64,000 nucleotides of DNA from positions 1 through 64,000 of the forward strand of contig CBDATS010000004.1 of assembly GCA_965200245.1 (NCBI GenBank), read 5' to 3'. Positions 1-38,384 of the stretch are shown piece after piece. A program made the position numbers and the translations under genes. The stretch comes from a bacterium (lineage in GTDB: Bacteria; UBA8248). The first letter of the stretch is position 1. Each line of letters opens with the position of its first letter. The notes below the pieces were generated by a model, which saw only the letters and a program-made list of their open reading frames with translations, did not search any database and was not told where the DNA came from.

Positions 1-1742
1 TCACTGAAAGAACGTAAAACGGCCTGGCCGCATTCTGCAAATTCGGCCTCGCCCGAGAGTTTCGCCAACTTCAACAAGCCCAGCGCCGCCATCGAATTCC
101 CGCTCGGAACGGCGCCGTCTTGCGTCATCTTCTTGCGCACGATGAGTTGTTCATGATCGTGGGCTGTAAAGAAGAAAGCGCCGTCCGCATCATCCCGGTA
201 GCGGGATATCATCTCCCGCGCCAAATCCGAAGCCGCTCGAATCCACCGGGTCTCAAAGCTCGCCTCATACAAATCCAACAGTCCGGGAATCAGAAAAGCA
301 TAATCATCCAGATACGCATTGAACCTGCTCACGCCTTCACGGTGGCTCCTGAGCAAACCCCGCTCATCGCGCATGTTGTTCAAGATAAAATCCGCCGCCT
401 TGCCCGCCTCTTCCACATACGGAGGATGTTCCAGAATCCTGCCCGCCAAGGCCATCGAACCGACCATCAGCCCATTCCAACTCGTGAGAATCTTGTCATC
501 CAGACCCGGTTTCACACGCCGCTCGCGCTCGGCGAAGAGCTTTGCACGGCCTCTTTGCAATACTCCGTAGAGTTCCTCTTCCGAAATGCCCAGTTCCTCG
601 GAAAAAGCGCGGGGTGGTTTCTGAATAAACAAGGCGGAGGTATTGCCCTCGAAGTTGCCTTCCTCCGTCACGCTGTAAAAACGGCAGAATATGTCCGCTT
701 CTTCTTTGCCGAGAATTTCCTCTATTTCCTCAGGACGCCAGACGAAGAACTTGCCCTCCTCGCCCTCGCTGTCAGCGTCCTGCGCAGAGTAGAATCCGCC
801 GCCCGGGCTGGTCATCTCCCGCAAAACGTAATCAAGCGTATCCGCGACCACGGATCGGTAAAACGCGCTTCCCGTCGCCTGGTAGGCCTCGATATAGACT
901 CTGGAAAGAAGGGCGTTGTCATAGAGCATCTTCTCGAAGTGGGGGATGAGCCAATACGCATCCACACTGTAGCGGTGAAAACCACCGCCGAGTTGATCAT
1001 ACATACCACCCAGCGCCATTCTTTTAAGTGTCAACTCGACCATGTTCAGCAATTCCTGATCCGGAGATCGTTTCCATTTTCTCAAAAGAAGCATCAGCGC
1101 CATGGAGGGCGGGAACTTCGGAGCACGTCCGAAACCGCCCCAGGCAGAGTCGAATCGCTCCTTGAGTTCCTTTGCTGCCTGATCGATCCACTCCGTTTTT
1201 AAATCACCCTTTGCGTCGGCCACGAATTCCATCTGCCGCAGGTTCGCTGTGATGCTCTCCGCGTTCGTATGCAAATCGTCTTGTCTCGTGCGGTAGATTT
1301 CGGCCAGTTTCAAGAGCACGTTCCTGAAACCTGGTCTCCCCCACTTGTCATGCGGCGGAAAATACGTGCCGCCGAAGAATGGTCTCAGATCCGGGAGCAG
1401 AAAAACGCTCATGGGCCAGCCTCCCTGACCCGTCATCATCTGCACCGCTTCCATGTAAATGCCGTCGATATCAGGACGTTCTTCCCGGTCCACCTTGATG
1501 GACACGAAATGCTCGTTCAGGATTGCCGCGATTCCCTCATCCTCGAAGCTCTCATGCTCCATCACGTGGCACCAATGGCAGGCGGAATAGCCGACGGACA
1601 AGAAAATGGGCTTGTTTTCTTCTCTTGACTTACGAAGCGAATCCTCGCCCCAGGGATACCAATGCACCGGATTGTACTGATGCTGCAGGAGGTAGGGACT
1701 CGTCTCCTGGGCGAGACGGTTCTTCTGTCGGGGTTGATTCAT
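1..1742 (-). CDS. yyaL: Thioredoxin-domain / DUF255 YyaL-like protein (runs off the window, 3' partial)
   Basis: Manual minus-strand translation from 1742: [33 protein letters not shown]...[23 protein letters not shown], the characteristic YyaL N-terminus. Absent from the ORF track because no stop lies in the window. Confidence 0.9.
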
Positions 1743-1837
1743 GAATTCCTCATATATGCGGGGAAAAGCCCATTTGCAGACGAATATCTGTCAACAGGTT
1801 ATGGGAGAATGCTCAACAAAACAATTGGGAATTACAT

Positions 1838-2192
1838 ACGCAGAAAAATTTCTTGCGTTTCCACCGGAATGTCCCGTATCCTGTTCATGATGCAAAAGAA
1901 AAACGAAAGCAGCGTGGGTGTCAACCCATACCCATTTCTCTCGGGAAAGGAGACCAGGATGAAATCTGCTACAGAGATGCGGCAGCAGCTGAGTGAGAAG
2001 GCAGGCACGGACGAGGCGTTCCGGCAGAAACTGCTCGACGACCCGCGCGGCACGATCGAAAGCGAGTTCGATGTCGCCCTGCCGGCCGGTTTTTCGGTTT
2101 CGGTGCTCGAGGACAGTGCGGATCATGCGCATCTGGTGATCCCGCCCTCGTCGCTGATCCCCGACAGCGACCTCGAGAGCGTCAGCGGCGGG
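1838..2192 (+). repeat. 355-bp repeat copy A (inverted partner at 8068-8422): upstream region, RBS and full NHLP leader
   Basis: Matches the reverse complement of 8068-8422 by eye; ORF translations are identical up to ...DLESVSGG. Confidence 0.93.
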
Positions 2193-2228
2193 ATAGACCG
2201 GTGGGGTAGCCACGACTACGGCCCCTGA
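1959..2228 (+). CDS. NHLP-leader (proteusin-type) RiPP precursor A, core IDRWGSHDYGP
   Basis: KAGTDEAFRQKLLDDPR...LPAGFSVSVLEDSADHAHLVIPP...DSDLESVSGG leader with double-Gly motif; AAGGAG RBS upstream. Confidence 0.9.
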   Translation: MKSATEMRQQLSEKAGTDEAFRQKLLDDPRGTIESEFDVALPAGFSVSVLEDSADHAHLVIPPSSLIPDSDLESVSGGIDRWGSHDYGP

Positions 2229-2268
2229 CCCTGGCGGGGGGATCTCGCGGGCGTCAGCGGCGGCGCCT

Positions 2269-2469
2269 GAGAAAGCAGAGGCCAGCGAGGAGTTCCGCGC
2301 CCGCCTGCTCGCTGACCCGAAGGCCGTGGTATCCGAGGAGGTCGGAATCGCTCTTCCGGATGATTGTAACCTCCATGTCGTGTCGGATGACGCGGAAAAC
2401 GGCTATCTGGTACTCCCGCCTGCGCCCCGACTCACCGAGGAACAGCTGGCGTCCGTCCAGGGCGGATAG
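2269..2469 (+). pseudogene. Headless, core-less NHLP leader remnant
   Basis: EKAEASEEFRARLLADPKAVVSEEVGIALPDDCNLHVVSDDAENGYLVLPPAPRLTEEQLASVQGG*; no start codon, stop directly after GG. Confidence 0.85.
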
Positions 2470-2473
2470 AAGC

Positions 2474-3013
2474 TTAAGGTATCAAGTCTTCCGGGATTTC
2501 AGTATGTGATTCCCAAACAATTTCCCTCTGAGGGGAGATTTGCACGAGTGTTTCCACGCGCCCGTCCCCGCGAATATGCGAGATGTTTTCACCGCGACCC
2601 TCTGACCAGGCCGTAGATATCAGATGCAGACGATGACAGTTTCTCGGGTTCTCCTCCGCGCAGAGAATCGCTGTGGGTTCTTTTTCCACCTGCGTCCCAA
2701 GACGCTCCATGGCGCGGATGAAACCCGCATCGCGCCTTACCTGCGCCCAGTCAATTCGCCCCTTGTCGCCAAAAAATTCCGGATTTTGTCTGATATTGCG
2801 CTTCCCACCCAACAACTCTCCTTCCCATATGTACGCGATATCCCGAGATTCCAAATACAGGCTCAATTTCTCTTTGTTGAACTGTGGGTTTCTCCTGCTG
2901 TAGGGAATGCTACGCACGTCCACCACGCATGCGATGCCGTGGCGAAACAGCAAGTCCAGGAGTTTTTCCCCGCTGTGGTTGCTGTGGCCTATCGTCCAGA
3001 GTGGATGCTTCAA
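2474..3013 (-). CDS. DUF488 family protein
   Basis: WTIGHSNH...VVDVRSIPYSRRNPQFNKE...ILCAEENPRNCHR; TTG start at 3013 inferred. Confidence 0.85.
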   Translation of the reverse strand: MKHPLWTIGHSNHSGEKLLDLLFRHGIACVVDVRSIPYSRRNPQFNKEKLSLYLESRDIAYIWEGELLGGKRNIRQNPEFFGDKGRIDWAQVRRDAGFIRAMERLGTQVEKEPTAILCAEENPRNCHRLHLISTAWSEGRGENISHIRGDGRVETLVQISPQREIVWESHTEIPEDLIP

Positions 3014-4349
3014 GCAAGCCCCCCATGAGAGTAGCCGCAACCTCGCATCCACGATGAAAAATTTCCACGTCGATGTTTTCATCCGGCGCATGGGCGTTCG
3101 AATCGGCATTGGCGAGAGGGAACCAGACGGAGGGAATCCCCAGGTCTCTCGTGAACATGCTGTCGGGAACACTGCCGCCGAAGTTCGGGTATATGACTGG
3201 CTCGACTCCGTAACCGCCGACGGCCTGTATTACCTTCTGCACATGGGGGTCGTCCGCCGGAGTCTTGCTGGCGTCGAAGGTTGCCATTTTACGGACCTCG
3301 ATATCACCGAACCCTTCTGCCTTCAGAAACGAACACACATCTTCGAAAAGCACATCCGGGTTCTGATCTACAACAAGGCGGAAGTCCAGCTTGGCGCGCG
3401 CGGAGCCTGGAAGGACTGTTTTCATGCCATCGCTGGAATACCCACCCTGAAAACCACAGATATTCAGATTCGGCCTGGTGAGAGAACTGGCATAAAATGC
3501 GGAAAGTTCCGGGATCCGGTCGGCCCCTTCACCGATGGCAGCCCGGAGTTCCGTCTCCGGGTCGGGGATTCCCTCAAGTGCATTCCGGTCCGCGTCGCTA
3601 ACCGGAAGCACGGAATCGTAAAACCCGGGTATGCGCACCTTGCCCTCGCGAGTTCGCAGACATTGCACGGCCTCCATGAGACGCCAGAATGGATTCGGGA
3701 CAGGCCCGCCATACGTCCCCGAATGGAGGTCCTTTCCTACTCCGTGCGCGAGCAGTTCGATGTAGAGCAACCCCCTGCAGCCCAGGGAAAGTGTCGGTCT
3801 GCCCGAGGGGTGCAAGGAGCCATCCGATGAGCACGCGATATCCGCTTTCAACAATTTCCTGTTCGCTTGTATGAATTTCCTCAGGCTGGGAGAGCCCATT
3901 TCCTCCTCACCCTCTATCAAAAACTTGAGATTGACAGGCATCTCCGTTTTCGTCTCGTGGTATGCTTCAACCGCCTTGATCTGAGCGAAATGCTGGCCCT
4001 TGTTGTCTCCCGACCCGCGTGCAAAGAGGCGGCCATCACGTACCTGTGGTTCAAAAGGCTCGGAACTCCAGCCCTCATCCATACTGGCAGGCTGTACGTC
4101 GTAGTGGCCATAGATCAACACGGTCGGGGCATCTGGCGGTCCTTTCACTTCACCATATACGAGCGAAATACCCCCGGTCGGCAGAATCCTTGCATCAATG
4201 CCCGCTTCATTCATCAATCCCGCCAGATGCGCTGCCGCCTCCACTACACCGACCCCCAATGTGCTGATGGAAGGTATTTTGAGATATTCGATGAGTTCCG
4301 CCAGACTCTGTTCCCTTCTCGATCGCAGAAAATCAATCACCGCCGACAT
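2910..4349 (-). CDS. M20/M25/M40 family metallopeptidase (ArgE/DapE-like)
   Basis: LIYGHYDVQP, ARGSGDNKGQ, EGEEEMGS, NAHAPDEN motifs. Confidence 0.9.
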   Translation of the reverse strand: MSAVIDFLRSRREQSLAELIEYLKIPSISTLGVGVVEAAAHLAGLMNEAGIDARILPTGGISLVYGEVKGPPDAPTVLIYGHYDVQPASMDEGWSSEPFEPQVRDGRLFARGSGDNKGQHFAQIKAVEAYHETKTEMPVNLKFLIEGEEEMGSPSLRKFIQANRKLLKADIACSSDGSLHPSGRPTLSLGCRGLLYIELLAHGVGKDLHSGTYGGPVPNPFWRLMEAVQCLRTREGKVRIPGFYDSVLPVSDADRNALEGIPDPETELRAAIGEGADRIPELSAFYASSLTRPNLNICGFQGGYSSDGMKTVLPGSARAKLDFRLVVDQNPDVLFEDVCSFLKAEGFGDIEVRKMATFDASKTPADDPHVQKVIQAVGGYGVEPVIYPNFGGSVPDSMFTRDLGIPSVWFPLANADSNAHAPDENIDVEIFHRGCEVAATLMGGLLEASTLDDRPQQPQRGKTPGLAVSPRHRMRGGRA

Positions 4350-4473
4350 TCCACTCTCCTTTGCAAAGAACCACATTCGCCGAGGTGTTGCCGAAATTAT
4401 CCACCCAGCTTATCCTGAGAGATAGCTTGAACCTGCCAAATTCATTTGCTGCCGCGCAAAAACTGGATTTCGC

Positions 4474-5484
4474 ATGATTCGATCTGTTCTTAGCATAATT
4501 CATCGAGCCATCAAGGTCATCCGCCTTGGACGCCTGCTGTTTTTTATCATCGTCATGTTGATGGTGACAAGCTGCACCCGGCCCCGTACCCTGAACCTGG
4601 CTCCTGCTCCTGAAGGAAGCTACAACCACCAGGAGAGTTACGTCGAATTACCTTCCAGCATCGAAAACGCCAAGATAACGGGGTACCTGGTGCGCCCCTC
4701 GGTAGCGGGGAGATACCCCTGTGTCGTATTGCTTCACGGAAAAGGCGGTTGGTGGCAAGCATACATCCGTTATGCCCGGAAGCTCGCCAGCCATGGATTT
4801 TCATCTTTGGTCATCAATTACTACTCGGTTCATCAGGTGGACCTCGCAGGCCTTACAACGCCATTCGCCCAAAGAAAACTGAATTTCGAGCGCCAGAATG
4901 AAGACATCAACCGGGCTGTTTCCGCATTTTCGAAAAGCGCGCATTGCGTGCAACGCAAAATCGGTCTCGTCGGGTTCTCACTTGGTGCTGACAAGGCATT
5001 CCGCACGGCCGCATCGCTTCCGGAAGTCGGGGCCATAGTAGCTTATTATGGTCCCTACGATTATGCGGCTCTCATCAAAAAGCGCATCAGTTCCGTCGTT
5101 CTCGCCCTGGCCCCTGAAGATCTACTCCAGTGGAAAAATTACCTGGAAATTCACAGTCCCACTTCCAAGGTCAAGAACTCGAGAGCTTCCACCCTGATGT
5201 TCCATGGCGTGACGGACGGGATCATTCCTGTCCAACAATCATTTGCGATGATAAAAAAATTAAGGGCGCGAAAATCGGGCCACGCGGAATTGAAACTGTA
5301 CGAGGGAACCGGCCACAATTTCGTGCTTAGAAGAAGCACTCCCCGGGAAAGGGAAGACTCGATTCGGATCGCGTTGATTTTCCTCAAAAACCACTTGTCC
5401 CAAAACAGGGAATCACCCAAGGCGCAACATGTGGACAAAAAACGCGCCGACCTTCATCCCGGAAACGGCAAACAAGGCAGTTGA
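4474..5484 (+). CDS. Dienelactone hydrolase-like alpha/beta hydrolase, probable lipoprotein
   Basis: VVLLHG, GFSLG nucleophile elbow, FHGVTDGIIP, GTGHNF; hydrophobic stretch ending VTSC. Confidence 0.8.
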   Translation: MIRSVLSIIHRAIKVIRLGRLLFFIIVMLMVTSCTRPRTLNLAPAPEGSYNHQESYVELPSSIENAKITGYLVRPSVAGRYPCVVLLHGKGGWWQAYIRYARKLASHGFSSLVINYYSVHQVDLAGLTTPFAQRKLNFERQNEDINRAVSAFSKSAHCVQRKIGLVGFSLGADKAFRTAASLPEVGAIVAYYGPYDYAALIKKRISSVVLALAPEDLLQWKNYLEIHSPTSKVKNSRASTLMFHGVTDGIIPVQQSFAMIKKLRARKSGHAELKLYEGTGHNFVLRRSTPREREDSIRIALIFLKNHLSQNRESPKAQHVDKKRADLHPGNGKQGS

Positions 5485-5490
5485 CACCTC

Positions 5491-7716
5491 ATGGACACGA
5501 CACCGGACGGCAGACACGGCAAGAGCGAATCCTGGGTTCGCGAATGGGTGGGCTGGAGTGAACTCACTCCCGCCGGCAACGTTGAAGCAGGCGCATGGGG
5601 CACGTGGACAATCACCTTCCACGTCGGCAGATACGGTGTAGACGATGGCGGGACAATCATTCTCTCACGTCGCTTCGCAAGCGATTGGGCCAGGCCGCAA
5701 ACCGACGCACCCGACAAAATCCATTTTGCGAGTGCAACTACGAGCGGGAGTGCCTCCCTCAGGCTGAGATGGGACCCGAAATCGAATATCAGGCCCTGGC
5801 AGCAAGGTCTGGCTATCGATGTTTTTGACAGTTATCTGGCGGAAGGAGATACGGTTACCATCGCCCTGGGAGACAGAAGCGGGGGCTCTGCGGGCACACG
5901 TGCCCAAACCTTTTGCGAGAAGAATTTCCGCTTCCGTCTCTTCGTGGACTGTTTCGGCTCGAATCGATTCATCGAAGCGGCCGATACGCCTTCCTTCGCT
6001 ATCGTACCGGGAAAACCGGCCCGTCTCGTCATGCATGGCGCTACGGAACAAGCATATGGTGAGACTTCCTGGATGCAAATAAAACTGGAAGACATCTGGG
6101 GAAATCCATGTTACGGCATCGATGCGGAAGTCTTTCTCACCGCCGAGGAAGCCATATGCGAGGGACTGCCGGAAGTCGTCCAGTTGAAGCGTGACGGTCC
6201 CGCCGTTGTCCGACTTGATGGTCTCAGATGGGAACCGGGCAAGTGGGGACGGGTACGAGGCGATGCCGGTGGCGGCATCCCTGCAGCATACAGTAATTTT
6301 GTGCACGCCATGGAGAAAACCCACAAATGGAGACCATTCTGGGGTGATCTCCACGGCCAAAGTGAGGAAACGGTAGGCACAAATACCGCGGATGATTACT
6401 TTTCATTCGCCCGCGACATGGCGGGGGCGCAATTCTCCTGCCATCAAGGAAACGATTTCCAGGTTACGAAAGATACCTGGACCGACATTCGCGCGGCCAC
6501 AAGGAAATACAACGAACCGGGCCGTTTCATCACGTTCCTGGGGATCGAATGGTCCGCCGTAACAGCCATGGGAGGGGACAGGAACGTCATGTATCTGGGC
6601 GACGACGGCCCTCTGCATCGAACGAGTCATTGGCAACTCGATGACTGGGCCGATCAGGAAACGGACAGATACCCTCTCGATGCTCTATACGACGCAATGA
6701 GTGGACGCACAGACGTCACCTTGATTCCGCACATCGGGGGCCGGCGCGCGAGTCTGGACTATCACCACACAGAGCTTGAACGCGTCATGGAAATATATTC
6801 ATCGTGGGGAAGATTCGAATGGTTCGTGGAGGAAGCCCTGGAAAAGGGCTGGCGAGTGGGCATCACGGCGGGCAGCGATGGACACAAAGGGCGTCCCGGA
6901 GCCAGCTACCCGGGCGCGGCTATTTTCGGCGTCTATGGCGGTTACACCTGCATCTATGCGGAAGAGCTCACACGCGAGAGCCTGTGGGAAGCGATTCAGG
7001 CCAGGCGTATCTATGCAACAACGGGAAAGAAGATTCATCTTTCTTTCTCGGCCGGAAACCATTTCATGGGAGATGAATTCGAATCCACCGAACCGCCTGT
7101 TTTCAAAGTTCAGGCCATGGGCGAATGCGGTATTGAGTCTATAGAATTAAAGCGCGCCTCACAGACCATTTTGTCTTATCATCCAAAAGATGCGGAAGCC
7201 CGGAATGCAGACTGGTTCCGGGTATCCTGGAGCGGCGCCCGCATACACCAGCGCAACCGTCAAACCCACTGGCACGGCGGCTTAAGAGTCGATAAGGGAA
7301 GAATCGAGGAGCCCAGAAACTGGCAAGTGGATAACCTCGAAGAAGGGATACAGTCAGCCGATGATCGAAGTATACGTTGGTTGAGCCGCACGACCGGGGA
7401 TGCGGACGGCGTCGAGTTCCGCCTTTCGGACGGAGAAGGCTCGACTCTCTACTTCGAAACCGACGTTGTTTCCTTTGAGGTAAGACCAGACGACATCGGA
7501 GTCGTTCCTTATTTGGTGGACGCAGGCGGCGTGCGCCAACAGGTGGAAGTGCAGCGCATCAGCCCAACGCCAAGGAATCCTTACGCGAACGTCACTTTCA
7601 AAATCGATGAAAGCGACTTTAATGACGGCTGGAATCCTTATTTCATCAGATTGATGCAAGAAGATGGGGCATTGGCGTGGAGCAGCCCCATATTCGTGAA
7701 AAAGGTGAAAAAATGA
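5491..7716 (+). CDS. DUF3604 / PHP-like metallohydrolase domain protein
   Basis: WGDLHGQSEET, HQGNDF, GSDGHKGRPG, RRIYATTG, AWSSPI motifs. Confidence 0.8.
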   Translation: MDTTPDGRHGKSESWVREWVGWSELTPAGNVEAGAWGTWTITFHVGRYGVDDGGTIILSRRFASDWARPQTDAPDKIHFASATTSGSASLRLRWDPKSNIRPWQQGLAIDVFDSYLAEGDTVTIALGDRSGGSAGTRAQTFCEKNFRFRLFVDCFGSNRFIEAADTPSFAIVPGKPARLVMHGATEQAYGETSWMQIKLEDIWGNPCYGIDAEVFLTAEEAICEGLPEVVQLKRDGPAVVRLDGLRWEPGKWGRVRGDAGGGIPAAYSNFVHAMEKTHKWRPFWGDLHGQSEETVGTNTADDYFSFARDMAGAQFSCHQGNDFQVTKDTWTDIRAATRKYNEPGRFITFLGIEWSAVTAMGGDRNVMYLGDDGPLHRTSHWQLDDWADQETDRYPLDALYDAMSGRTDVTLIPHIGGRRASLDYHHTELERVMEIYSSWGRFEWFVEEALEKGWRVGITAGSDGHKGRPGASYPGAAIFGVYGGYTCIYAEELTRESLWEAIQARRIYATTGKKIHLSFSAGNHFMGDEFESTEPPVFKVQAMGECGIESIELKRASQTILSYHPKDAEARNADWFRVSWSGARIHQRNRQTHWHGGLRVDKGRIEEPRNWQVDNLEEGIQSADDRSIRWLSRTTGDADGVEFRLSDGEGSTLYFETDVVSFEVRPDDIGVVPYLVDAGGVRQQVEVQRISPTPRNPYANVTFKIDESDFNDGWNPYFIRLMQEDGALAWSSPIFVKKVKK

Positions 7717-8040
7717 CAGCGGACAAACTGCCTGTTCTCGACGAAAGTTGGCAGCAGGCACTGGTCACCACAGCGTATCGAGTTCAATGGAATTCAGCAC
7801 CTTGAGCACCGTCTCAAGCTGGGCGGTGAGGGCAAGGAAATCCCATACATCCTGATGACGGGCAGGAAGGCAGGCATTGACGGCATGTCGCCTGAAGAAA
7901 CCGGACCTTCCAGAGAAGAAGAAAAACAAAGCACCGCCATTACAAGCCCATAAGTTCTTTCTCAACGATCTCGCCCAAGGGTCCGAGCCCGTCGATTTCC
8001 TGACTCAAGAGGCTGTCAAGACGGGCAAACGTAGCGAATT

Positions 8041-8301
8041 TCAATGTACGTTATCGTACCATGGAGCCCCGCCGCTGACGCTCTCGAGGTCGCTGTCGGG
8101 GATCAGCGACGAGGGCGGGATCACCAGATGCGCATGATCCGCACTGTCCTCGAGCACCGAAACCGAAAAACCGGCCGGCAGGGCGACATCGAACTCGCTT
8201 TCGATCGTGCCGCGCGGGTCGTCGAGCAGTTTCTGCCGGAACGCCTCGTCCGTGCCTGCCTTCTCACTCAGCTGCTGCCGCATCTCTGTAGCAGATTTCA
8301 T
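8041..8301 (-). CDS. NHLP-leader RiPP precursor B, core APWYDNVH
   Basis: Leader identical to precursor A; different 8-aa core after VSGG. Confidence 0.9.
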   Translation of the reverse strand: MKSATEMRQQLSEKAGTDEAFRQKLLDDPRGTIESEFDVALPAGFSVSVLEDSADHAHLVIPPSSLIPDSDLESVSGGAPWYDNVH

Positions 8302-8422
8302 CCTGGTCTCCTTTCCCGAGAGAAATGGGTATGGGTTGACACCCACGCTGCTTTCGTTTTTCTTTTGCATCATGAACAGGATACGGGACATTCCGGTGGA
8401 AACGCAAGAAATTTTTCTGCGT
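8068..8422 (-). repeat. 355-bp repeat copy B (inverted copy of 1838-2192)
   Basis: Reverse complement match, same length as copy A. Confidence 0.93.
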
Positions 8423-8573
8423 TCCCCCAGGTTTTGTGCTGGACATTAAGAATTTCAAAAAAAAATCGCTACCAAAGGCTATATCTTCTCAAGCGAATTG
8501 GGTAGTATTCGCTTTCAGTTGGGCCGTACGCCACTATCCTATCGATTCAGAAACCTGATGGATGAGGGAATGA

Positions 8574-9518
8574 ATGCTTGACGACGCAACAAAACAGGAA
8601 CTAAGGGAAAAACATTACAACGCGACAGTCGTGGATATCGTCTGGCAGCATGACACGCTTGCATGTTTCCGTGTCAAACCTGATTTTGATTTTCCCGAAT
8701 ATAAATCGGGGCAATATACGACACTGGGCCTGGGCAATTGGGAGCCCCGCCATGAGGATGCCGTCAAGGAAAAAGAACTCGACGAAAACAGAATCAGGAG
8801 ACTGGGCAGACGCGCCTATTCCGTATCCCACCCCGTAGTCAACGGCTCGGGAGAGCTATATCCGACGAAAGATCTGGACTTTCTGGAATTCTACATCGTC
8901 ATGGTCATCGGTGTGGAAGGAGAACCCGCCCCTCTACTTACCCCGAGACTCTTTCTCCTGAAGCCCGGCGATCGCATTCACATGGGTCAAAAGTTTACCG
9001 GCGAATATACGCTGGAATGCATGAACGATATTCGGGATGACGAGAATTCCCTCGTCGTGTTCGCCGGCACCGGGACGGGAGAAGGCCCACACAACCACAT
9101 GATATGGGAGCTTCTTCGCACGGGCTACAAAGGCCAGGTTGCCAGCATCAACGTCGTACGCTACAAAGGCGACCTCGCATATGAAACCGTCTACAGAGAA
9201 CTTGAGAAGAAATATCCCCAGCTTTCATATCACGCGCTCACCACACGCGAGGCGGACACCATCAACAACAAGATATATGTGCAGGATTATCTGGCTACAG
9301 GCATATTTGAAGAAAAACTCGGCCGCAAGATGGACCCCGAAAACACGCATCTGTTCCTGTGCGGAAACCCCGCCATGATCGGCATCCCAAAAGTTCGTGA
9401 AGGCAATAAGATATGGCCTGAAGGCGCCCCAGGCGTCATCCAGATCATGGAAGATTGCGGTTTCACAATGGACTACGGCCGGACGAAAGGAAACATTCAT
9501 TACGAGAAATACTGGTAA
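8574..9518 (+). CDS. fpr: Ferredoxin--NADP+ reductase
   Basis: GQYTTLGL, RRAYS, GTGTGEGP, LCGNPAM, C-terminal EKYW. Confidence 0.88.
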   Translation: MLDDATKQELREKHYNATVVDIVWQHDTLACFRVKPDFDFPEYKSGQYTTLGLGNWEPRHEDAVKEKELDENRIRRLGRRAYSVSHPVVNGSGELYPTKDLDFLEFYIVMVIGVEGEPAPLLTPRLFLLKPGDRIHMGQKFTGEYTLECMNDIRDDENSLVVFAGTGTGEGPHNHMIWELLRTGYKGQVASINVVRYKGDLAYETVYRELEKKYPQLSYHALTTREADTINNKIYVQDYLATGIFEEKLGRKMDPENTHLFLCGNPAMIGIPKVREGNKIWPEGAPGVIQIMEDCGFTMDYGRTKGNIHYEKYW

Positions 9519-9574
9519 GACCTGCGTTTCGCATTTTACCTCAGTTCTCGTAGACGAACTGCCCAGGAGAACCC

Positions 9575-10355
9575 ATGCCCGAGCTTATTCAAGAAGTCGA
9601 GGGCACATTCTCCATCCTGAAGTTCAACAGAAAAAACGTCCGGAGCGCCATCAACGAAGAAATCATGCAGGGCCTCTCAATCGCTCTGGACAACCTTGAG
9701 GCATCTCACGAAGTGAGGGCCGTAATCCTCACGGGTTCAGGAGAGGAAGCGTTCTGCTCGGGCGGCGACCTGAAGTGGCTTCAGTCCCTGGAATCCCGCG
9801 AGCAAGGGATGGGCATGAGCAGGCGAATGCAGGAAATCCTGGGGCGTCTGTCCCAATTGCCGGTACCCGTCATAGCCGTTTTGAACGGATACGCTCTTGG
9901 AGGCGGAACCGAAATCGCCATGGCCTGCGATATGCGAATACTGGAAGAACACGCATACATGAGTTTCAAGCAAGCCCGCGTGGGCCTTATGACCGGTTGG
10001 GGGGGGCGGGGGACGCCTCCTCCGGGCCATAGGCTATGGACGAGCGATTGAGTTGTTGACCACGTGCAAGGAACTGGCTCCGGAAGACGCGCTGAAGATG
10101 GGACTCGCCAATGCTCTGGCACCCAAAGGAGAGGGCTTGGGTGTCGCCAAGACGATGGCAAGGGAAATTTCGAGGAGCGCACCGGGTGCTGTCCGATCCC
10201 TGAAGGAATTGCTCCTGTTCGGGTCAGAAAATACACTGGAGAAAACGACCGGTCTAGAGTCGTCGCGATTTGCGGATCTTTGGGTGTCGGAAGATCATAA
10301 TGAGGCGGTAAAGGCTTTTTTCGAAAAGCGAAATCCCGTTTTCAAGGGAAAGTGA
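9575..10355 (+). pseudogene. Enoyl-CoA hydratase/isomerase, +1 frameshift in G8 tract at 9999-10006
   Basis: AFCSGGDL and GYALGGGTEIAMACD in ORF 9575-10051; removing one G gives GWGGGGRLLRAIGYGRAIELLTT, which joins ORF 10053-10355 (FFEKRNPVFKGK). Confidence 0.85.
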
Positions 10356-10362
10356 CCGCGAA

Positions 10363-11949
10363 ATGACAGATGAACATCCACAAGTTAAAACTCGCTCAGG
10401 TCTCGCTGTCGAAAGCGTCTACGGCCCGGGAGATATCCCCGAAAGCTACCAGCCGGGCCAACCGGGAGAATACCCACTCACGCGCGGCATCCATCCCCAG
10501 ATGTTCAGAAAACGCCTTTGGACGATGCGCCAGTATTCAGGTTTCGGAACCGCCGAAGATACGAACCAGCGATACCGCTTTCTGCTCGACGAGGGAAACA
10601 CCGGGCTGTCAGTCGCTCTCGATTTACCGACCCAACTGGGTCTTGACAGCGACGATCAAAAATCAGCCGGTGAAGTCGGCAAAGTCGGCGTGGCCATAGA
10701 TTCGCTGGCGGATATGGAAACCATATTTCATGGCATCCCGCTCGAAAAGATCAGCACCTCCTTTACCATCAACTCAACTGCCGCCATCCTATACGCCATG
10801 TACGTAGCTGTCGGAAAAAAACAAGGCGTTTCCCCCTCTCAACTGACCGGCACCATCCAGAACGATATCCTGAAAGAATACGTTTCCCGCGGCACATGGA
10901 TATTCCCACCTGAACCATCCCTGAGGCTAATCGTCGATACCGTTGAATACGGCGTGAAAAATACCCCGAGGTTCAACACCATCAGCGCCGCCGGCGCGCA
11001 TTTCAGGGATGCCGGCGCCACCGCCGTCCAGGAGGGCGGACTCACCATCGCGGACGCGATCGTATATGTGGAAAGGTGTCTGGAACGCGGTCTCGATATC
11101 GACGAGTTCGCACCCAGGCTCAGTTTCTATTTTTATACCCACATGGATTTTTTCGAAGAAATCGCTAAATACAGGGCCATGCGGACGTTATGGGCAAAAA
11201 TCATGCGAGAGCGATTTAGCACCAGGAATGAAAGAAGCTGGTTATTCCGCTTCGGCGTTGTTTGCGGCGGCAGCACGCTTACTGCGCAGGAACCCGAGAA
11301 CAACATTGTCCGGGTCACGTACGAAGCGCTGTCCGCCGTTTTCGGCGGTGCTCAGACCATCTTCACTTGCGCATACGACGAAGCCCTGGCGTTACCGACC
11401 GAAGAAAGCGCCCTCCTCGCCCTGCGCACTCAGCAGATCATCGCCCATGAGAGTGGCGTACCCGACGTCGCGGATCCCTTTGGCGGTTCATATTACCTGG
11501 AAAACCTGACTGCCCACATGGAAAACGGGATGGCTCAGATTATCGAAGACATTGAAGAGCGCGGCGGCATGGTCGAGTGCATTCAAAGGGGCGTAGTACA
11601 ATCGTGGATTGCGGAGAGTGCTTTCCAATGGCAACAGGCGGTGGACACACAAGCACAGACTATTGTCGGCGTCAATAAATATGTGCGGGAGACTCCCCCC
11701 TCTCAAGAGATATTCACGGTCAACCCTGCTATTGAAGAACGCCAGAAGAAACAACTGGATAAATTGAGGAAAGAGCGAGACAGCTCGCAGGTAAAGCGAT
11801 GCCTCATGCGCCTCGAACATGCCGCTCAGGGCGATGAGAATCTCATGGAGGCGATTTCCGAGGCAGTAGAAGCCTATGCCACTATCGGCGAGATTACGGA
11901 CGTGCTGCGCCGGGTTTTTGGAGAATTTCAGGAACCCGTGTCTTTCTAG
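10363..11949 (+). CDS. B12-dependent acyl-CoA (methylmalonyl-CoA-type) mutase, large substrate-binding subunit
   Basis: PLTRGIH, WTMRQYSGFG, GTIQNDILKEY, DPFGGSYYLE; no fused B12-binding domain. Confidence 0.9.
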   Translation: MTDEHPQVKTRSGLAVESVYGPGDIPESYQPGQPGEYPLTRGIHPQMFRKRLWTMRQYSGFGTAEDTNQRYRFLLDEGNTGLSVALDLPTQLGLDSDDQKSAGEVGKVGVAIDSLADMETIFHGIPLEKISTSFTINSTAAILYAMYVAVGKKQGVSPSQLTGTIQNDILKEYVSRGTWIFPPEPSLRLIVDTVEYGVKNTPRFNTISAAGAHFRDAGATAVQEGGLTIADAIVYVERCLERGLDIDEFAPRLSFYFYTHMDFFEEIAKYRAMRTLWAKIMRERFSTRNERSWLFRFGVVCGGSTLTAQEPENNIVRVTYEALSAVFGGAQTIFTCAYDEALALPTEESALLALRTQQIIAHESGVPDVADPFGGSYYLENLTAHMENGMAQIIEDIEERGGMVECIQRGVVQSWIAESAFQWQQAVDTQAQTIVGVNKYVRETPPSQEIFTVNPAIEERQKKQLDKLRKERDSSQVKRCLMRLEHAAQGDENLMEAISEAVEAYATIGEITDVLRRVFGEFQEPVSF

Positions 11950-12075
11950 ATGCCTTGCTATGCCCGTCCGCTTGCCCAACCCGGCAAAACACGGAATAAT
12001 CCCTATCAAGAATAATATCCCGAAATATGAATTCAGAGTCCTACACGACATTTTCTCAGGAGGTAGCGACAAAAA

Positions 12076-33780: not shown

Positions 33781-33801
33781 CGCTATTATCGAAATAATGC
33801 G
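33781..33801. promoter_or_regulatory. Imperfect inverted repeat upstream of abiEi, possible autoregulatory operator
   Basis: CGCTATTATCGAAATAATGCG; AbiEi proteins are known to bind promoter inverted repeats. Confidence 0.3.
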
Positions 33802-33842
33802 ATTTGATTGCGCAAAGGATCATAATATGTTACTTTTTGCAC

Positions 33843-34646
33843 ATGAAAAAGAATTTTCGTCGACTAAGCGCCAGTAACTACATTGGCAATCTTGCTTCTG
33901 CTGGAAGATATCACTTTACATCAAGTGACGCCCTTGAGGCGCTTGGTGTGTCCGCCAACGCCACCAAGGTTGCCTTGAGACGGCTGGCTCGGCAAAATCT
34001 CATCGCACAGCCCGGGCGTGGCTTTTATGTAATTGTCCCGCCCGAATACCGCTCTCTTGGGTGTCTGCCAGGGGACCAGTTTATACCGGCGCTAATGCAA
34101 CGGAAAAAACAACTCTATTATGCGGGGCTGTTGTCAGCCGCACAATACTACGGCGCGACCCATCATCAGCCCCAGGAATTCCAGGTGTTGCTCAACAAGG
34201 CACGTAGGCCGATCCATTGCGGCCAGGTGCGCGTGACCTTTATCCTCCGCAAGTGCCTTCGGAGTGTTTCCGTGCAAACTTTCAATTCACCTCGCGGCAC
34301 GATCCTGGTGTCGACACCAGAAGCAACAGCCGTCGATCTCGTCGGTTATTACCACCACGTGGGTGGGCTCGACCAAGTGGCGACCATCCTGTCTGAACTT
34401 GCAGATCAGGTCGATCCCCAGAAACTTGTGATGGCCGCTCAGACCGCGCCAATCACGTGGGCACAAAGGCTTGGTTCCTTATTTACACTTGTCAAGGCTT
34501 CCGAGCAGGTGGCCCTCCTGAGAGCTTATATCAGGAGCGAAGCCCGGCGAACGGTTCCGATACTCCCAGGGACATCCCAAGAAGGAGCGCCTCGCGACTC
34601 GGACTGGAAACTCTTCATCAATACCGACGTGGAACCAGACCTATGA
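33843..34646 (+). CDS. Type IV TA antitoxin, AbiEi family
   Basis: GFYVIVPPEY, YYAGLLSAA..YGATHHQPQ, VSTPEATAVDL. Confidence 0.85.
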   Translation: MKKNFRRLSASNYIGNLASAGRYHFTSSDALEALGVSANATKVALRRLARQNLIAQPGRGFYVIVPPEYRSLGCLPGDQFIPALMQRKKQLYYAGLLSAAQYYGATHHQPQEFQVLLNKARRPIHCGQVRVTFILRKCLRSVSVQTFNSPRGTILVSTPEATAVDLVGYYHHVGGLDQVATILSELADQVDPQKLVMAAQTAPITWAQRLGSLFTLVKASEQVALLRAYIRSEARRTVPILPGTSQEGAPRDSDWKLFINTDVEPDL

Positions 34647-34860
34647 TCCCGCGTGACTATATTACTGCATGACGAGCCCAAGTACCTTGCGTCCAGGATT
34701 GCCAAGTTGAACAAGACCTTGTCATCAGCCGGGCGTTGATTTCGATTTTCACTCACCCGCTTCTAGCAGAAACTCTGGCTTTCCGGGGCGGCACAGCACC
34801 CTACAAACTCCACATCCATCCCCCACGCCGGTATTCCGAAGATCTCAATCTTGTCCAAAT
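34643..34860 (+). pseudogene. AbiEii nucleotidyltransferase toxin, nonsense-mutated and truncated
   Basis: MIPRDYITA*RAQVP...QVEQDLVISRAL...LAFRGGTA..K...RYSEDL; ends at the IS remnant. Confidence 0.85.
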
Positions 34861-35200
34861 CTGGTGCATAGCCGTCCTGAATCCAGCGGCCTCCCTGCCC
34901 GTTTCATTTTCGTTTAACCCATTGATGAACCTCACATCGGCGATCACGTCGGTCAGATGACGGAAGCCCCGTAGCCCGCGCCATCGTTTCCCGGCACTCA
35001 TGGCGAACTGCTGCACGAGACTGAGCGCCGTCCTTTCGCTCAAACAGCTCCTAGTCTTCGCCGTTTACAAGTGGATGGCAAGAAGGCCGACTCGATGGGA
35101 TTCATCGTCCGCAGATGTCCCCGGTGCGTCGCCCGAAAGTCGAAGTCATGGAAGGCGAGGAACTCCTCGCGGAACCCCGCCTCCAGGGCCAATGAGATTT
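34850..35200 (-). mobile_element. IS256-family transposase C-terminal remnant with decayed right end
   Basis: HLRTMNPIESAF...SAGKRWRGLRGF..L.DVI..VRF.NG...AA, followed by CACCAGATTTGGACAA, an IS256-like end. Confidence 0.7.
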
Positions 35201-35220
35201 CGAATTTTCCCTTGTCTGGC

Positions 35221-36615
35221 TCATTCATGAGCGTTGGCACCCTCATTTATTACGGTTGCGGTCCCCAGACGTTTGACTTTTTCCACTGTCATTCGTTCAT
35301 TTTCCGGTTTATCAAACGTCCGCGTCATGACCCCGGCAACCTTGATCGGTCGGCGAACGGCTCCAGGATCAATACCTGCCCGAAGTGCGCAAAGAACACC
35401 CGCTGCCTCCCAGTAATTTTCAACGATATGGAGTTGGCCGGGTCGCCAAGGTAGTATCTCCAGGTTGTTCTTCATGAGGTTCGCGTTTTCGCGCACAGCG
35501 ACCACGCGAATGCCTTGCTCCAGTGCGGCCAGTGTGGGAAGTCCCACACAACCATCAGGAATCACCAAGCATGAAACGTCACGCGCCGATATGACACCGG
35601 AACCGGACGGCTTCATAACTATACGCGGGCTTTTATGCAATCCTTTCAGAACGCATTGAAAGAATGTCAGTGAAATCGCTTCTGCGGCCATGCGGGGATC
35701 CACCACTCCCGGTTCCATATTGGCAATTTCGCGCGACTCGAACATCGGGCAATGGGCTGACGGCACGTTGAACCTGTCGGATATGGCATGAGTGAGCATG
35801 GCTTCCACTCCACCCCACGGATTGACCATATCTCCGGCTGCGTCGAAATATCCCTGATGGAACTCATGGGGAACGGAAATAACCGATGATATTGCTACTG
35901 CATCATATTGCCCCTGCTGTTCCTCAAGAATTTTAAAGAGACGTTCAAGGCCAAGAATTTTTCCGCTGGCTGTACCAATGGGATTGAACCCCGCTTCCAT
36001 CACCAAGGAAGGAGAAAGTTTGACTATGCCGGTGCAAATGAAACCACATGACGCCCTTGCCGCGTTCACTGCATTTATGGCGGCGTTCACAAAGAAATCG
36101 TCACGGTGGTCATCAATAATCACCAGGAGACGATTCGCCCGCGCCGGAACGAGACCGACAGTTCCCATCATAAGCCGGGCAATAACGCTTCCCTCGACAT
36201 AGAGCGAATTTGATGGCATTTCATTGATGTCGGATGCGTTCACCACGTTGGGATGCAGAATCAATCTGTCGCAGGCCTCGGCGAGCAGTCGTGCTGCAGG
36301 CGTCGCATCTCCGGCATGGCCTCCAATCTCTGCCCCGATGCCGGTCGGAACCAGAAAAACGACATTGAATTGCTCTGTGTTCTCGTATTCGCGATGCACA
36401 AAGTTAAAGACAGACTTGTTTGGAGCACCATCTGGTGAAGCCGCTTCCAGGCCGCTGACCAAGCATTTTGCATGGCTTTCATCTGAATCAGTGATGGCAA
36501 ATCTGAGGGGCGTGATACCAAGTAACCGGACCTGGACGCTCTCCCTGATCTGCGCGAGTGGATTGGAACTGCGCAGAGATATCGGCAAATCGGTTGTATG
36601 TTCTCGCAAAATCAA
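35221..36615 (-). CDS. DUF3326 domain protein with N-terminal extension
   Basis: VPTGIGAEIGGHAGDA, HPNVVNASD, LYVEGS, GGVEAMLTH, VDPRMAAE; TTG start with AAGGA RBS directly after the upstream stop. Confidence 0.8.
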   Translation of the reverse strand: MILREHTTDLPISLRSSNPLAQIRESVQVRLLGITPLRFAITDSDESHAKCLVSGLEAASPDGAPNKSVFNFVHREYENTEQFNVVFLVPTGIGAEIGGHAGDATPAARLLAEACDRLILHPNVVNASDINEMPSNSLYVEGSVIARLMMGTVGLVPARANRLLVIIDDHRDDFFVNAAINAVNAARASCGFICTGIVKLSPSLVMEAGFNPIGTASGKILGLERLFKILEEQQGQYDAVAISSVISVPHEFHQGYFDAAGDMVNPWGGVEAMLTHAISDRFNVPSAHCPMFESREIANMEPGVVDPRMAAEAISLTFFQCVLKGLHKSPRIVMKPSGSGVISARDVSCLVIPDGCVGLPTLAALEQGIRVVAVRENANLMKNNLEILPWRPGQLHIVENYWEAAGVLCALRAGIDPGAVRRPIKVAGVMTRTFDKPENERMTVEKVKRLGTATVINEGANAHE

Positions 36616-36616
36616 T

Positions 36617-37006
36617 TTATGTCCTTTCGACGAAGGTCTTTTTGATTGATGCCGCCGTGAAATACCGGCCTGCAAACTTCTCAGCCGTTTCCGGCTCAAA
36701 GGGTTTGCAGGAGAAGATGTTGATGTAAACGGTTCCCAGAAGATCAAGCGTATGTATGACGATGGAACTCGTCAGGATGAAGCATACGGCGGATGTGCCT
36801 TTCGTGTGTGGCGAGGTCTGCCGTTCTTCTTCCGGGACATCCAGGTCATCCCAGAAATGAACCTCACACTTTTTCATATCGATCAGATCACAAATATCGG
36901 TGAAGAACCTGTCTATGCTGTTCCGATTGAACATATCGGTATCGCATCCATGAAGGTCGAGTATGAGTTCATAGCCATATAACTGGTCTGCAGTCATGCG
37001 ATTCAT
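36617..37006 (-). CDS. Short pyruvoyl-dependent S-adenosylmethionine decarboxylase-like proenzyme
   Basis: YGYELILDLHGCD, GTSAVCFILTSSIVIHT (cf. AESHISIHT), YINIFSCK. Confidence 0.8.
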   Translation of the reverse strand: MNRMTADQLYGYELILDLHGCDTDMFNRNSIDRFFTDICDLIDMKKCEVHFWDDLDVPEEERQTSPHTKGTSAVCFILTSSIVIHTLDLLGTVYINIFSCKPFEPETAEKFAGRYFTAASIKKTFVERT

Positions 37007-38203
37007 CTAATATCCCACAGTTTTACGAACACTCTGAAACACATTTTCCAGTCCCATGCCAGCAACTACTGCCCATAGGATGGAAAGATACACATCGCTG
37101 AAACTAGGCTCCTTCAAATTCGGGACAATGGATCCAAGTACAATCAACCCGCCTGCCAATGCCGAGAAAACCAAAATGCCAGCCAGCATACCAAGAGGAG
37201 CCCCGAGCACTATTCTCCATAGCTCCCGTTTCCCGGACATGTGACCGATCTCCACTTCTTGGGCGTTCTTCAGATTAATCAATGCGCTGGCAACCGCCCC
37301 CGCAACCCCAAGCAAACCCCAGTCCAAGATGTCCAAACGACAACAGCAGCGTGCGGAACCCTGGGTAGAACAAAGTAAAGGCAAAATGCCCATTAACATG
37401 AAAACAACGACCGCGACCGACCCGCAAACCCTTATACTTGAGACAATCGTTGAGCCTTTGGCCCAATAAAGTTCGTAATCCGCCACATGCTCGAGGAGTC
37501 CCCGGAGACTTGCACGGAGTTCTTCAGCTTTGTCATCCTTTTTCTCATCAACATTGTCCCCTTTAATCCTACCCAACTCAGATATGGCGTCCTTGATTCT
37601 CTTGGAAAAGCCGTAATAGTTATCGACATCATAAGAGAATGCATCCCCCTCCGCATACTCCTTCAGTTCGGCGAGGCCTGTTCGGGCCCGTTCTTTGAGG
37701 TCTTCTAGCTTGAGGAAGTCAATCAGAAGACATTCCAGCGGAAGAACCTGAAATTCGGTCCATCCTTGAGGACCCAGTTTCTCGAGTCGCTTCACTTCCT
37801 CATCGAGCTGGATACGCTTCTCAGTAAAGTTGGCGGGGCGATCAGAGTCAGTCAATCTAGGTTGAACATGCTTTGCTTCCTGTATACGCATCTCGATTTC
37901 ACTTCGGTCCGCTTTCCGCACCTTATGAACACGTATCTCATGCAGAATCACAAACACAGTCACCAATCCCGATAAAAATCCGATCAGGGCGAGATAAAGA
38001 CACCATGTGCACTCCAGACTGGTGGCAGGGCCCGATAGAATACTGATGCAGGCCCAAATGAGATAACCGATACTGACAGCCATTAAGACTATGGCGACCC
38101 GAAAAATGAAGCGACTCCGCGGAGTCAGCCTGGGGGGAAGTTCATCTTCCGGGTGTTCGGGTTGCGGTCGATTCATTTCAGTTTTATTGAGTTCGTCCGG
38201 CAT
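37007..38203 (-). CDS. Hypothetical multi-pass membrane protein (2 TM, helical domain, about 4 TM)
   Basis: Intact 398-aa ORF with hydrophobic segments; stop abuts the ATG of the next gene. Confidence 0.75.
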   Translation of the reverse strand: MPDELNKTEMNRPQPEHPEDELPPRLTPRSRFIFRVAIVLMAVSIGYLIWACISILSGPATSLECTWCLYLALIGFLSGLVTVFVILHEIRVHKVRKADRSEIEMRIQEAKHVQPRLTDSDRPANFTEKRIQLDEEVKRLEKLGPQGWTEFQVLPLECLLIDFLKLEDLKERARTGLAELKEYAEGDAFSYDVDNYYGFSKRIKDAISELGRIKGDNVDEKKDDKAEELRASLRGLLEHVADYELYWAKGSTIVSSIRVCGSVAVVVFMLMGILPLLCSTQGSARCCCRLDILDWGLLGVAGAVASALINLKNAQEVEIGHMSGKRELWRIVLGAPLGMLAGILVFSALAGGLIVLGSIVPNLKEPSFSDVYLSILWAVVAGMGLENVFQSVRKTVGY

Positions 38204-38384
38204 TTATCGTCTCGGTTGAGGAATTTTCCGTCAGTTGGCAACATTCAAAAACAAAAAGCCACTGTCAGAAATCGCTTGGGAAAACAATACCCTCACGTTG
38301 CAATGTCAGTGCTCGGCAGGGGCGCTCAGACAACCCGTTGCCGGATTCTTCTGGCATACCTGCCTCCAGCTTTCTTCAAGCAAC

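Follow-up and report, generated by a model that had tools for sequence, protein, structure and literature searches.

We analysed a 64,000-nucleotide stretch of a bacterial genome (GTDB lineage UBA8248; assembly GCA_965200245.1, contig CBDATS010000004.1, positions 1 to 64,000 of the forward strand; hereafter the window), near the start of which two genes for precursors of peptides that are made on the ribosome and then modified (RiPPs) lie in the arms of a perfect inverted repeat. An earlier reading of these letters alone (the sequence-only reading) had proposed that the repeat is a candidate switch that exchanges the two peptide cores by inversion. We find instead that the arms very probably belong to a lineage-specific family of about 35 copies of a mobile cassette, which carries a precursor gene with an NHLP leader together with its control block, and not a purpose-built switch. 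The repeat is far beyond chance, and for an ordinary reason: its arms are two members of a dispersed multi-copy family.

A repeat search in positions 1 to 12,000 of the window found a single inverted pair, with arms of 355 nt that are 100% complementary and 5,875 nt apart. The features of the pair are as follows.

1838-2192, plus strand: left arm of the 355-nt inverted repeat (repeat search)
8068-8422, minus strand: right arm of the 355-nt inverted repeat (repeat search)
1838-1958, plus strand: upstream block conserved in the family (72-80% at about 25 further loci), read as promoter/operator plus 5′ untranslated region, with AAGGAG at 1947-1952
1959-2228, plus strand: NHLP precursor A (leader 1959-2192, ending ..SVSGG; core IDRWGSHDYGP, 2193-2225; stop codon 2226-2228)
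8041-8301, minus strand: NHLP precursor B (leader 8068-8301; core APWYDNVH, 8044-8067; stop codon 8041-8043)
2523-7712, no strand assigned: enclosed gene block (DUF488, M20 peptidase, dienelactone hydrolase and DUF3604 by Pfam), conserved and ordinary

Each arm contains 121 nt 5′ of the ATG (at 1959 on the plus strand and 8301 on the minus strand), the ribosome site AAGGAG and a leader of 78 codons that closes with SVSGG. Both precursors match the NCBIfam model of the NHLP leader, TIGR03793, with 61.6 and 61.8 bits for A and B (cut-off 50.9), and in both a Gly-Gly cleavage motif is followed by a short core. The identity of the arms ends at the last base of the second Gly codon, and both cores lie inside the enclosed segment. 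The sequence-only reading was therefore right on two points, the inverted copies with their upstream DNA, ribosome site and whole leader, and the end of identity on the Gly-Gly codons ahead of unlike cores, which we confirmed on both strands. It had also placed an imperfect palindrome at the outer boundary of the repeat. The string in question, ACGCAGAAAAATTTCTTGCGT, does occupy 1838-1858, but the palindrome is specific to four copies; most other copies read ACGTCAAAAAATTTCTTGCTTTCC at its position, a string with non-complementary outer arms, so that it is no feature of the family. The boundary at 1838 lies 11 nt inward of the end of a transposable element (1827).

Relatives of the bacterium gave the ancestral state of the locus. 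We compared positions 1 to 10,400 of the window with 30 related genomes, 18 of them of the same genus. In 17 of these 18 the left flank, the inner block and the right flank have the same order and strand, and both arms are absent; the eighteenth (G015) gave fragments only. The left flank reaches query position ~1826-1830 in the relatives (~1752 in three distant genomes), the inner block extends over ~2515-7940 and is collinear and 74-84% identical in the 17 congeners, and the right flank runs from ~8447-8564. On the left side, flank and block join directly. On the right side, ~490 bp lie between block and flank, and these are the rest of a gene that is intact in the relatives. Base-level alignments of nine loci bear this out. 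Since the relatives are collinear without the arms, both precursor genes are insertions of this lineage, and the orientation of the block is ancestral.

The insertion on the left has the footprint of a transposable element, the parts of which are listed here.

1819-1826, no strand assigned: left target-site duplication AAACAATT, 8 bp; a single copy without an insert in eight in-register relatives
1827-2514, plus strand: non-autonomous element of 688 bp bounded by terminal inverted repeats; carries precursor A and a core-less second leader, and is not in the relatives
1827-1839, plus strand: remnant of the 5′ terminal inverted repeat, GGGAATTACATAC, 13 nt; an internal deletion joins it to family position -121
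2266-2469, plus strand: second NHLP leader, of another subfamily, without its first ~12 codons and upstream block; Gly-Gly, then a stop codon, no core
2482-2514, minus strand: 3′ terminal inverted repeat (..GTATGTGATTCCC); 19 of 26 positions agree with the consensus
2515-2522, no strand assigned: right target-site duplication AAACAATT (alignment to relatives)

The element thus starts GGGAATTACATAC and finishes GTATGTGATTCCC, and its downstream terminal repeat ends 286 nt past the stop codon of precursor A. In the eight relatives that align in register the ancestral site reads ..CAACAAAACAATT-CGGGCTGGGG.. with no insert, and the relatives run from query position ~1826-1830 directly into ~2515-2532. 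The 13-mer GGGAATTACATAC stands at -132 from the ATG in the left element and at about -250 in full elements; to judge by this arrangement, the left element is an internally deleted member of the family. The left arm begins at 1838 because the 13 nt of the 5′ end are joined to family position -121. The genome that holds the window (G000; 3.68 Mb in 15 contigs, here numbered with the prefix C; 95.8% complete, 8.1% contamination) has a near-identical twin of the left element with full ends at C2:304598-305596 (99.8% over 606 nt). The end of C2 adjoins the start of C4 by synteny with three relatives, and the twin therefore lies ~32 kb upstream of the left element, in direct orientation. The second leader scores 58.5 bits with TIGR03793 and is 92.5% identical to C4:114705-114904, close to C4:114966-115007, where the same variant of the 3′ terminal repeat is found; the twin of this leader at C2:305091-305393 terminates in ..EDASGG followed by VYDPFGGQMP.

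The same cassette is dispersed over the whole genome. As a DNA query, the arm gave 30 matches in G000. Seven of them have 92-100% identity, and ~22 others reach 72-80% in the upstream block plus ~60 nt at the start of the leader. Leader-bearing open reading frames (ORFs) number 37 by protein search and 38 by an iterated hidden Markov model search (one of them nitrile-hydratase-like), and TIGR03793 has 39 matches, 34 above the cut-off; in these counts two genes appear twice, as one sequence stands at two contig ends (C15:1-4816 and C2:1023-5838). By comparison, each of 22 congeners has 2-9 TIGR03793 matches, with at most five above the cut-off. The 33-nt consensus of the terminal repeat, GGGAATTACATACTTGAATCCGCAAGTCTGAAT, occurs 30 times at up to nine substitutions, and 28 of these occurrences are beside NHLP ORFs. 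With up to three mismatches it occurs 15 times in G000, and not at all in the 22 congeners or for a reversed control. The full units consist of ~250 nt upstream, the leader, the core and then ~70-475 nt downstream. Nine elements of 599-999 bp have both ends. Three of these have flanking 8-mers that agree at 8/8 positions, two at 7/8, two at 6/8, one at 4/8 and one at 2/8.

Miniature inverted-repeat transposable elements (MITEs) and mobile insertion cassettes are transposase-less elements flanked by terminal inverted repeats, some with passenger genes. The elements in G000 are of this kind: they are multi-copy, have no internal transposase and are taken up by the precursor gene or genes. A unit of 705 bp at C4:1426664-1427368, with imperfect inverted ends of ~40 nt and a perfect AAAAATTC duplication, corresponds in the relative G010 to a single uninterrupted AAAAGTTC, and in this way terminal inverted repeats, a target duplication and an empty site in relatives all come together. 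Other sites are less simple. At C4:1371916-1372637 the relatives have ~390 bp of other DNA in place, and the loci at C4:591189 and C5:472057 are patchworks specific to G000 that have no simple empty site. As far as these footprints go, the family appears to consist of elements of 0.6-1.0 kb that lack a transposase, are bounded by terminal repeats and target duplications, and have a precursor gene as cargo; most of the NHLP-leader matches in the genome lie within such an element. The family also appears to be lineage-specific, with its expansion confined to one species of the genus.

Several sequences were considered as an autonomous partner of the cassette and rejected. The solo terminal repeat at C4:988948 lies between ORFs that look ordinary (judged by eye, from their termini). 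Genomic repeats of 1.1-1.4 kb gave no transposase domain in the ORFs scanned; one of the ORFs of these repeats, C4:705070-706311, belongs to the IS256 family and has a frameshift. Genes of that family are intact on C3 and C1, and there the ends are unrelated to those of the cassette. We also noted that in type-I elements, such as C4:1426664-1427368, a remnant of ~55 nt of an IS256-family end (GAGTTACTGTCAGATCCGGTGTATGG..) lies ~25 nt after the stop codon of the core and is preceded by a short sequence like the terminal 13-mer of the cassette; the hypervariable core of these elements is thus flanked by the leader and by transposon-end debris.

The insertion on the right differs from that on the left, and two features define it.

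8058-8447, minus strand: inserted cassette fragment without terminal inverted repeats; family positions -146 to +243, 390 bp
7713-8057, plus strand: PIG-L/LmbE-like gene in decay, frameshifted and short of 356 bp internally at ~7940; intact in eight aligned relatives

The fragment replaces 18 bp of the ancestral site, which in the relatives reads ..TATCGT TCGAAGCAATCTCGATAT GAATTTC.. free of an insert, and its junctions share only 2-4 nt. Positions 8066-8447 are 97% identical to C4:591164-591549 and C5:472032-472413. The host gene, which we take to be PIG-L/LmbE-like from the HPDD motif in the related genomes, lacks ~356 bp that the relatives have at the deletion in the alignment, and a short-read contig over 5488-8085 confirms the sequence of the decayed gene with one differing letter and no gaps. 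On the minus strand, positions 8041-8057 supply part of a Tyr codon and then D-N-V-H-stop, the antisense of the ancestral 3′ end of the PIG-L-like gene; the end of this gene in the relatives, read in the frame of core B, gives ..NDTAY-stop. The first residues of core B, APWY, are common to the core APWYNDGWPE of C15:316484 and C2:243512. Core B is therefore chimeric, part donor core and part local DNA, and the birth of a new core can be seen in it directly.

We propose the following course of events. The element 1827-2514 would have transposed into an intergenic AAACAATT site, giving the left arm. A 390-bp piece of a sister copy may have been patched into the 3′ end of the dying PIG-L-like gene by illegitimate repair of the microhomology type, and the leader with APW(Y) would have been fused to local antisense DNA supplying (Y)DNVH and the stop codon, hence a new core. 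The look of an inverted repeat would come from the chance facing of two insertions across an ordinary block of 5.4 kb. The arms would be identical since they are recent and since homologous recombination or gene conversion has kept seven close copies uniform and reshuffled their parts. The repeat, the family, its terminal repeats and target duplications, the empty sites, the chimeric core, the mosaics with identical leaders, the enzyme fold and the exporter are observed directly; we infer where the promoter lies, how the events followed one another, that conversion acted beyond mere recency, and that the peptides are prenylated and active.

The exchange among copies is seen in an alignment of the seven close copies, in which we counted differences per segment. 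The leader from +21 to +233 has 0/213 differences in six of the seven, and the seventh has a 5-nt patch; the region from -115 to -1, in contrast, differs at 28/115 positions (24%) between the type of C15:316750 and the others (Fisher 7e-16 versus the leader). The copies are mosaics of two far-upstream types, three forms of the hexamer at -121, two start variants and four cores. The start variants MKSATEM and MKTAAEM and the core types IDRWGS.. and APWY.. are present in all four combinations, which requires exchange inside the identical leader, and the first 6 nt of the left arm are of the right-arm type, whereas the remainder of the left element is that of the C2 twin. The 15 leaders of the larger subfamily, in contrast, have a pairwise median identity of 88% and a median of ten synonymous codon differences. 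Since exchange needs shared sequence, identity ends where the unlike cores start, at the Gly-Gly codons. The sequence-only reading had offered, as its alternative, that gene conversion keeps the leaders alike while cores are exchanged, and this fits the unchanged leader next to a diverged upstream region and the four combinations. Over evolutionary time, then, cores have been reshuffled at the leader, through ordinary homologous recombination or conversion between dispersed copies and not through a dedicated switch.

Could the arms be alike simply because the copies are very young, with no conversion or recombination at all? Three 100%-identical copies (C2:304738, 1838 and 8068) do lie within ~40 kb once C2 is joined to C4, and copies farther away are 92-98% identical, as recent duplication predicts. 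This explanation does not account for copies that have diverged by 24% upstream and still show 0/213 differences in the leader, for the four combinations of start variant and core, or for the left arm that begins as the right-arm type and continues as the C2 twin. We consider recent duplication as the whole cause unlikely, and conversion among copies, rather than recency alone, the probable source of the identity.

The switch of the sequence-only reading would have a recombinase flip the 5.9-kb segment, so that core A or core B comes to lie behind an active outer promoter. Such a device is suggested by a perfect 355-nt inverted repeat that encloses both cores and by the short imperfect palindrome with which its outer boundary coincides, but the rest of the evidence speaks against it. 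Pfam gave no invertase, integrase or transposase domain in the 10 ORFs of 1-9518, and no resolvase, invertase, integrase or transposase was found in the 51 ORFs of at least 100 aa between 10.3 and 64 kb. The arms are missing in 17 of the 18 congeners, the inner block is in the ancestral orientation, the palindrome is not conserved in the family and, with at least seven near-identical copies in the genome, the pair is one of many repeat pairs. In addition, the arms contain the upstream block, which ~30 paralogues share, together with the ribosome site and the full leader, so that a flip would give back the same two genes. Conservation in this block is highest over AAATTTCTTGC..CGGAAT.TCCCATA.CCTG.TCATGA, a stretch that is inside the arms and is kept even in truncated copies, from which we infer a promoter inside the repeat; with a promoter there, inversion would leave both peptides unchanged. 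A programmed switch is, in our view, highly improbable, and the finding as first written comes out negative: the inverted repeat is incidental.

Other means of regulation or diversification were looked for as well. No sigma-54 pattern of the -24/-12 type was seen by eye. In positions 1-12000 the only Rfam match with E≤1 was a sub-threshold snoU82P at 4555-4615 (26.7 bits versus 42), and RNAalifold on 17 upstream regions gave -3.7 kcal/mol with one compensatory pair, which does not support a structured RNA. A diversity-generating retroelement was rejected, as the assembly (95.8% complete) has no RVT_1 domain and the cores have no adenine-specific changes.

A flip need not be programmed. Identical arms might recombine in some cells by a RecA-dependent route with no designed function; 355 nt of perfect identity 5.9 kb apart are, as a matter of general knowledge, ample substrate for homologous recombination, and the mosaic copies indicate that recombination in this leader has occurred. 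The sequencing data bear on this only in part. Six runs from two studies (labelled as sponge metagenome or with a coded organism) contain 82-99% of the sampled words of positions 1-10000, and we aligned three contig-based runs and one run of raw reads, which are 150 nt long. The assembly and the contigs of the three runs agree with the ancestral order, but the k-mer contigs break at the repeat and give no linkage across it, ending 18-30 nt within the arms; with the 355 nt unspanned, they offer no positive evidence for or against an inverted state. Taking both sides together, we regard such a polymorphism as rather unlikely.

The same data speak to whether the repeat is an artefact of the assembly, i.e. 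a collapsed or mis-joined repeat, or an identity made by polishing. Two observations point that way: word depth over the arms is several-fold that of the flanks, and the assembly has an indel error at 9999, where two contig-based runs and 3/3 raw reads of X7 lack one base. Higher depth, however, is expected from at least seven genomic copies, and independent short-read contigs from both studies cross the junctions of flank and element (1516-1867), of element and block (2439-3297) and on the outer right (8400-8989); at the junction 8057/8058 the contig extends just 28 nt to the far side. No variant letters are listed inside either arm in the three contig-based runs. Each arm, moreover, has its own unique junctions, marked by a target duplication on the left and by homology to the ancestral site on the right. 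An artefact is thus very hard to credit.

A number of points weigh against the reading of the arms as copies of a mobile cassette. The relatives, at 74-87% DNA identity, all belong to different species. Perfect 8-bp duplications flank only three of the nine two-ended elements detected with the probe (4/10 with the left element), and many copies of the family have one terminal repeat or none. Searches of the assembly (95.8% complete) and of the 22 congeners, and an exact-pattern scan of public genome contigs (0 hits), turned up neither an autonomous element nor a transposase that has these terminal repeats, and mobility is therefore deduced from footprints only. Of its 5′ repeat the left element retains just 13 nt; it may have moved in this form or have lost the rest afterwards. 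Terminal repeats are lacking in the right arm, and for it another, less certain route of insertion has to be assumed. The identity of the arms could stem from recency alone. A scan with the sigma-70 consensus found no promoter in either arm, and it is conservation that suggests a promoter inside the repeat. Finally, the assembly contains at least one indel (9999), and polishing could homogenise repeats, although the short-read contigs show no variants.

The peptides themselves have a common character. The cores are short and almost free of Cys, e.g. AYYDWDDAF, GYLWPY, EWVWH, AYWGDVPNHV and GDPWYWRD. Among 22 distinct cores, all of which hold Trp or Tyr, W, Y and F make up 25.6% of residues, compared with 7.3±2.0% (15.1% at most) when 2000 random frames were drawn from the genome; this set leaves out near-duplicates, three read-through or truncated cores, the two genes at C8:326-327 kb and a weak match at C8:218768. 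By this composition the cores are under selection, and it is compatible with aromatic prenylation. Relatives of the precursors in other public genomes have 82-85% protein identity and other aromatic cores, such as GSWHDPIH and YGHVPNPGW.

None of the modification enzymes lies between or beside the two arms, by Pfam of the window ORFs. Beside other precursors of the genome there is a paralogous family of nine ORFs of 149-422 aa (six of 357-422 aa and three shorter or split), and one P450 stands between two others. No Pfam or NCBIfam model matches the nine-ORF family. An AlphaFold2 model of one member, built from an alignment of 13 public homologues and four paralogues, has a pLDDT of 89.6 and a pTM of 0.88, and all of the PDB matches listed by Foldseek are aromatic prenyltransferases (best E 1e-4, TM 0.41-0.57, probability 0.94-1.00). 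They include FunA, FgaPT2, AnaPT, IptA, CymD, PriB, PagF and CloQ, i.e. the DMATS, PagF and CloQ types, with 9-16% identity between the partner enzyme and the solved prenyltransferases. The model thus predicts an ABBA aromatic-prenyltransferase fold for the partner enzymes, which may prenylate the precursors. For export, the genome has an NHLM system at C8:219599-225625, which contains the only C39 domain of the genome and scores 902 bits with TIGR03796 (cut-off 853), beside matches to TIGR03797 (684, just below its cut-off of 709) and TIGR03794 (82, partial; cut-off 156). No SPASM domain, and hence no radical SAM/SPASM maturase, was found in the genome. The ~35 precursors are plausibly substrates of several prenyltransferase-fold paralogues, with Gly-Gly cleavage and export by the single NHLM system.

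Some further loci touch on this enzymology. At C2:3349-5558 (the same as C15:1-4816) a P450 gene (C2:3836-5128, minus strand) lies between two NHLP precursors, one with the core NLYY and the other truncated; this locus may be a biaryl-crosslinking branch of the same family. Beside the exporter, at C8:216383-219480, the prenyltransferase-fold gene occurs in a copy split in two (149 + 188 aa), together with a 318-aa protein with a faint squalene-cyclase-like repeat, a degenerate terminal repeat (C8:217557) and a weak remnant of a leader. An apparent native cluster is found in two relatives, at L113 (G016 C19:155001-167000) and L115 (G013 C4:3524001-3535000); it comprises a precursor, a 370-aa prenyltransferase-like gene, two proteins of ~770-920 aa, an ABC transporter and a 433-aa protein with an N-terminal NHLP-like domain.

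We tentatively suggest, as an idea rather less probable than its negation, that the cassette works as an engine of a RiPP library. Promoter and leader would land, or be patched in, and read into the next DNA, making new cores; recombination in the homogenised leader would re-assort these cores, and selection would keep the Trp/Tyr-rich ones that promiscuous prenyltransferase-fold enzymes and a single exporter can process. If true, this would be a concrete and testable mechanism for the origin of precursor families with conserved leaders and hypervariable cores. How large families of this kind are built is an open question, for which the prochlorosins are the best-known example, and the present genome offers a clean case, with ~35 precursor genes on an element that has terminal repeats, duplications and empty sites in sister species. 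Should the peptides be real products, they would form a natural combinatorial library for an uncharacterised prenyltransferase-fold family in a sponge-associated bacterium, of interest for natural-product discovery and engineering. A single narrow search of the literature found no description of a RiPP precursor as transposable cargo, which does not prove absence.

The prochlorosin libraries (ProcA/ProcM) of marine picocyanobacteria resemble the family described here in their dozens of scattered precursors of the Nif11/NHLP class, with conserved leaders, a Gly-Gly boundary and hypervariable cores, all presumed to be served by a few promiscuous enzymes. For these libraries a diversification mechanism linked to TnpA_REP transposases has been proposed, which the authors then qualified in a post-submission note to their preprint as undemonstrated (bioRxiv 10.1101/2020.03.09.984088). 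The present system differs in that an element with terminal inverted repeats, 8-bp duplications and empty sites in relatives carries each precursor as its cargo, in that the cores are short, Cys-free and aromatic, in that the enzymes are of the prenyltransferase fold and not LanM, and in that its expansion is restricted to one species of the genus. With MITEs and mobile insertion cassettes it shares small size, terminal inverted repeats, 8-bp duplications, many copies, the lack of a transposase and truncated derivatives; here, however, a RiPP precursor gene that brings its own control region is the passenger, an autonomous partner was not identified, and in one type of element the core is followed ~25 nt on by an end remnant from an unrelated member of the IS256 family.

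Shufflons and invertible switches (Rci/R64, Hin, fimS) are similar in that inverted repeats bracket a segment with alternative C-terminal coding ends. Unlike them, the present locus has no dedicated recombinase, its repeats are whole 355-nt gene copies and not short recombination sites, the arrangement is absent in relatives, and the predicted products are unaltered by inversion. Leader-dependent prenylation of peptides has been described for enzymes of the cyanobactin PagF type, for PalQ (PMC10853753) and for lanthipeptide prenyltransferases (PMC12715784). These are likewise ABBA-fold enzymes encoded beside RiPP precursors with Trp or Tyr cores. The family in G000 differs from them in matching no Pfam or NCBIfam model and in its low identity (9-16%) to solved prenyltransferases, and its activity is putative.

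Elsewhere in the window and the genome we noted some features of lesser bearing. An enoyl-CoA hydratase gene reads as two separate frames (9575-10051 and 10053-10355), probably owing to the assembly indel at 9999. Positions 33800-53500 form an island of the defence type, with an AbiEi antitoxin, a type I restriction system with a split hsdR (39689-40096, 40115-42826 and 46110-46547), an hsdS fragment, hsdM, DUF4411/M78, PIN, Fic and a nucleotidyltransferase. Of hsdM, the 3′ part (52898-53474) recurs as a 90%-identical inverted copy at C4:590371-590948, which directly abuts the upstream DNA of another precursor cassette, that at C4:591 kb. Just downstream of another cassette, C5:472483-473042 is a patchwork of C2:312126-312610 (99.6%) and window positions 1493-1574 (90%, inverted), source segments that lie ~11 kb apart in the relatives; this patchwork suggests template-switch repair around the cassettes.

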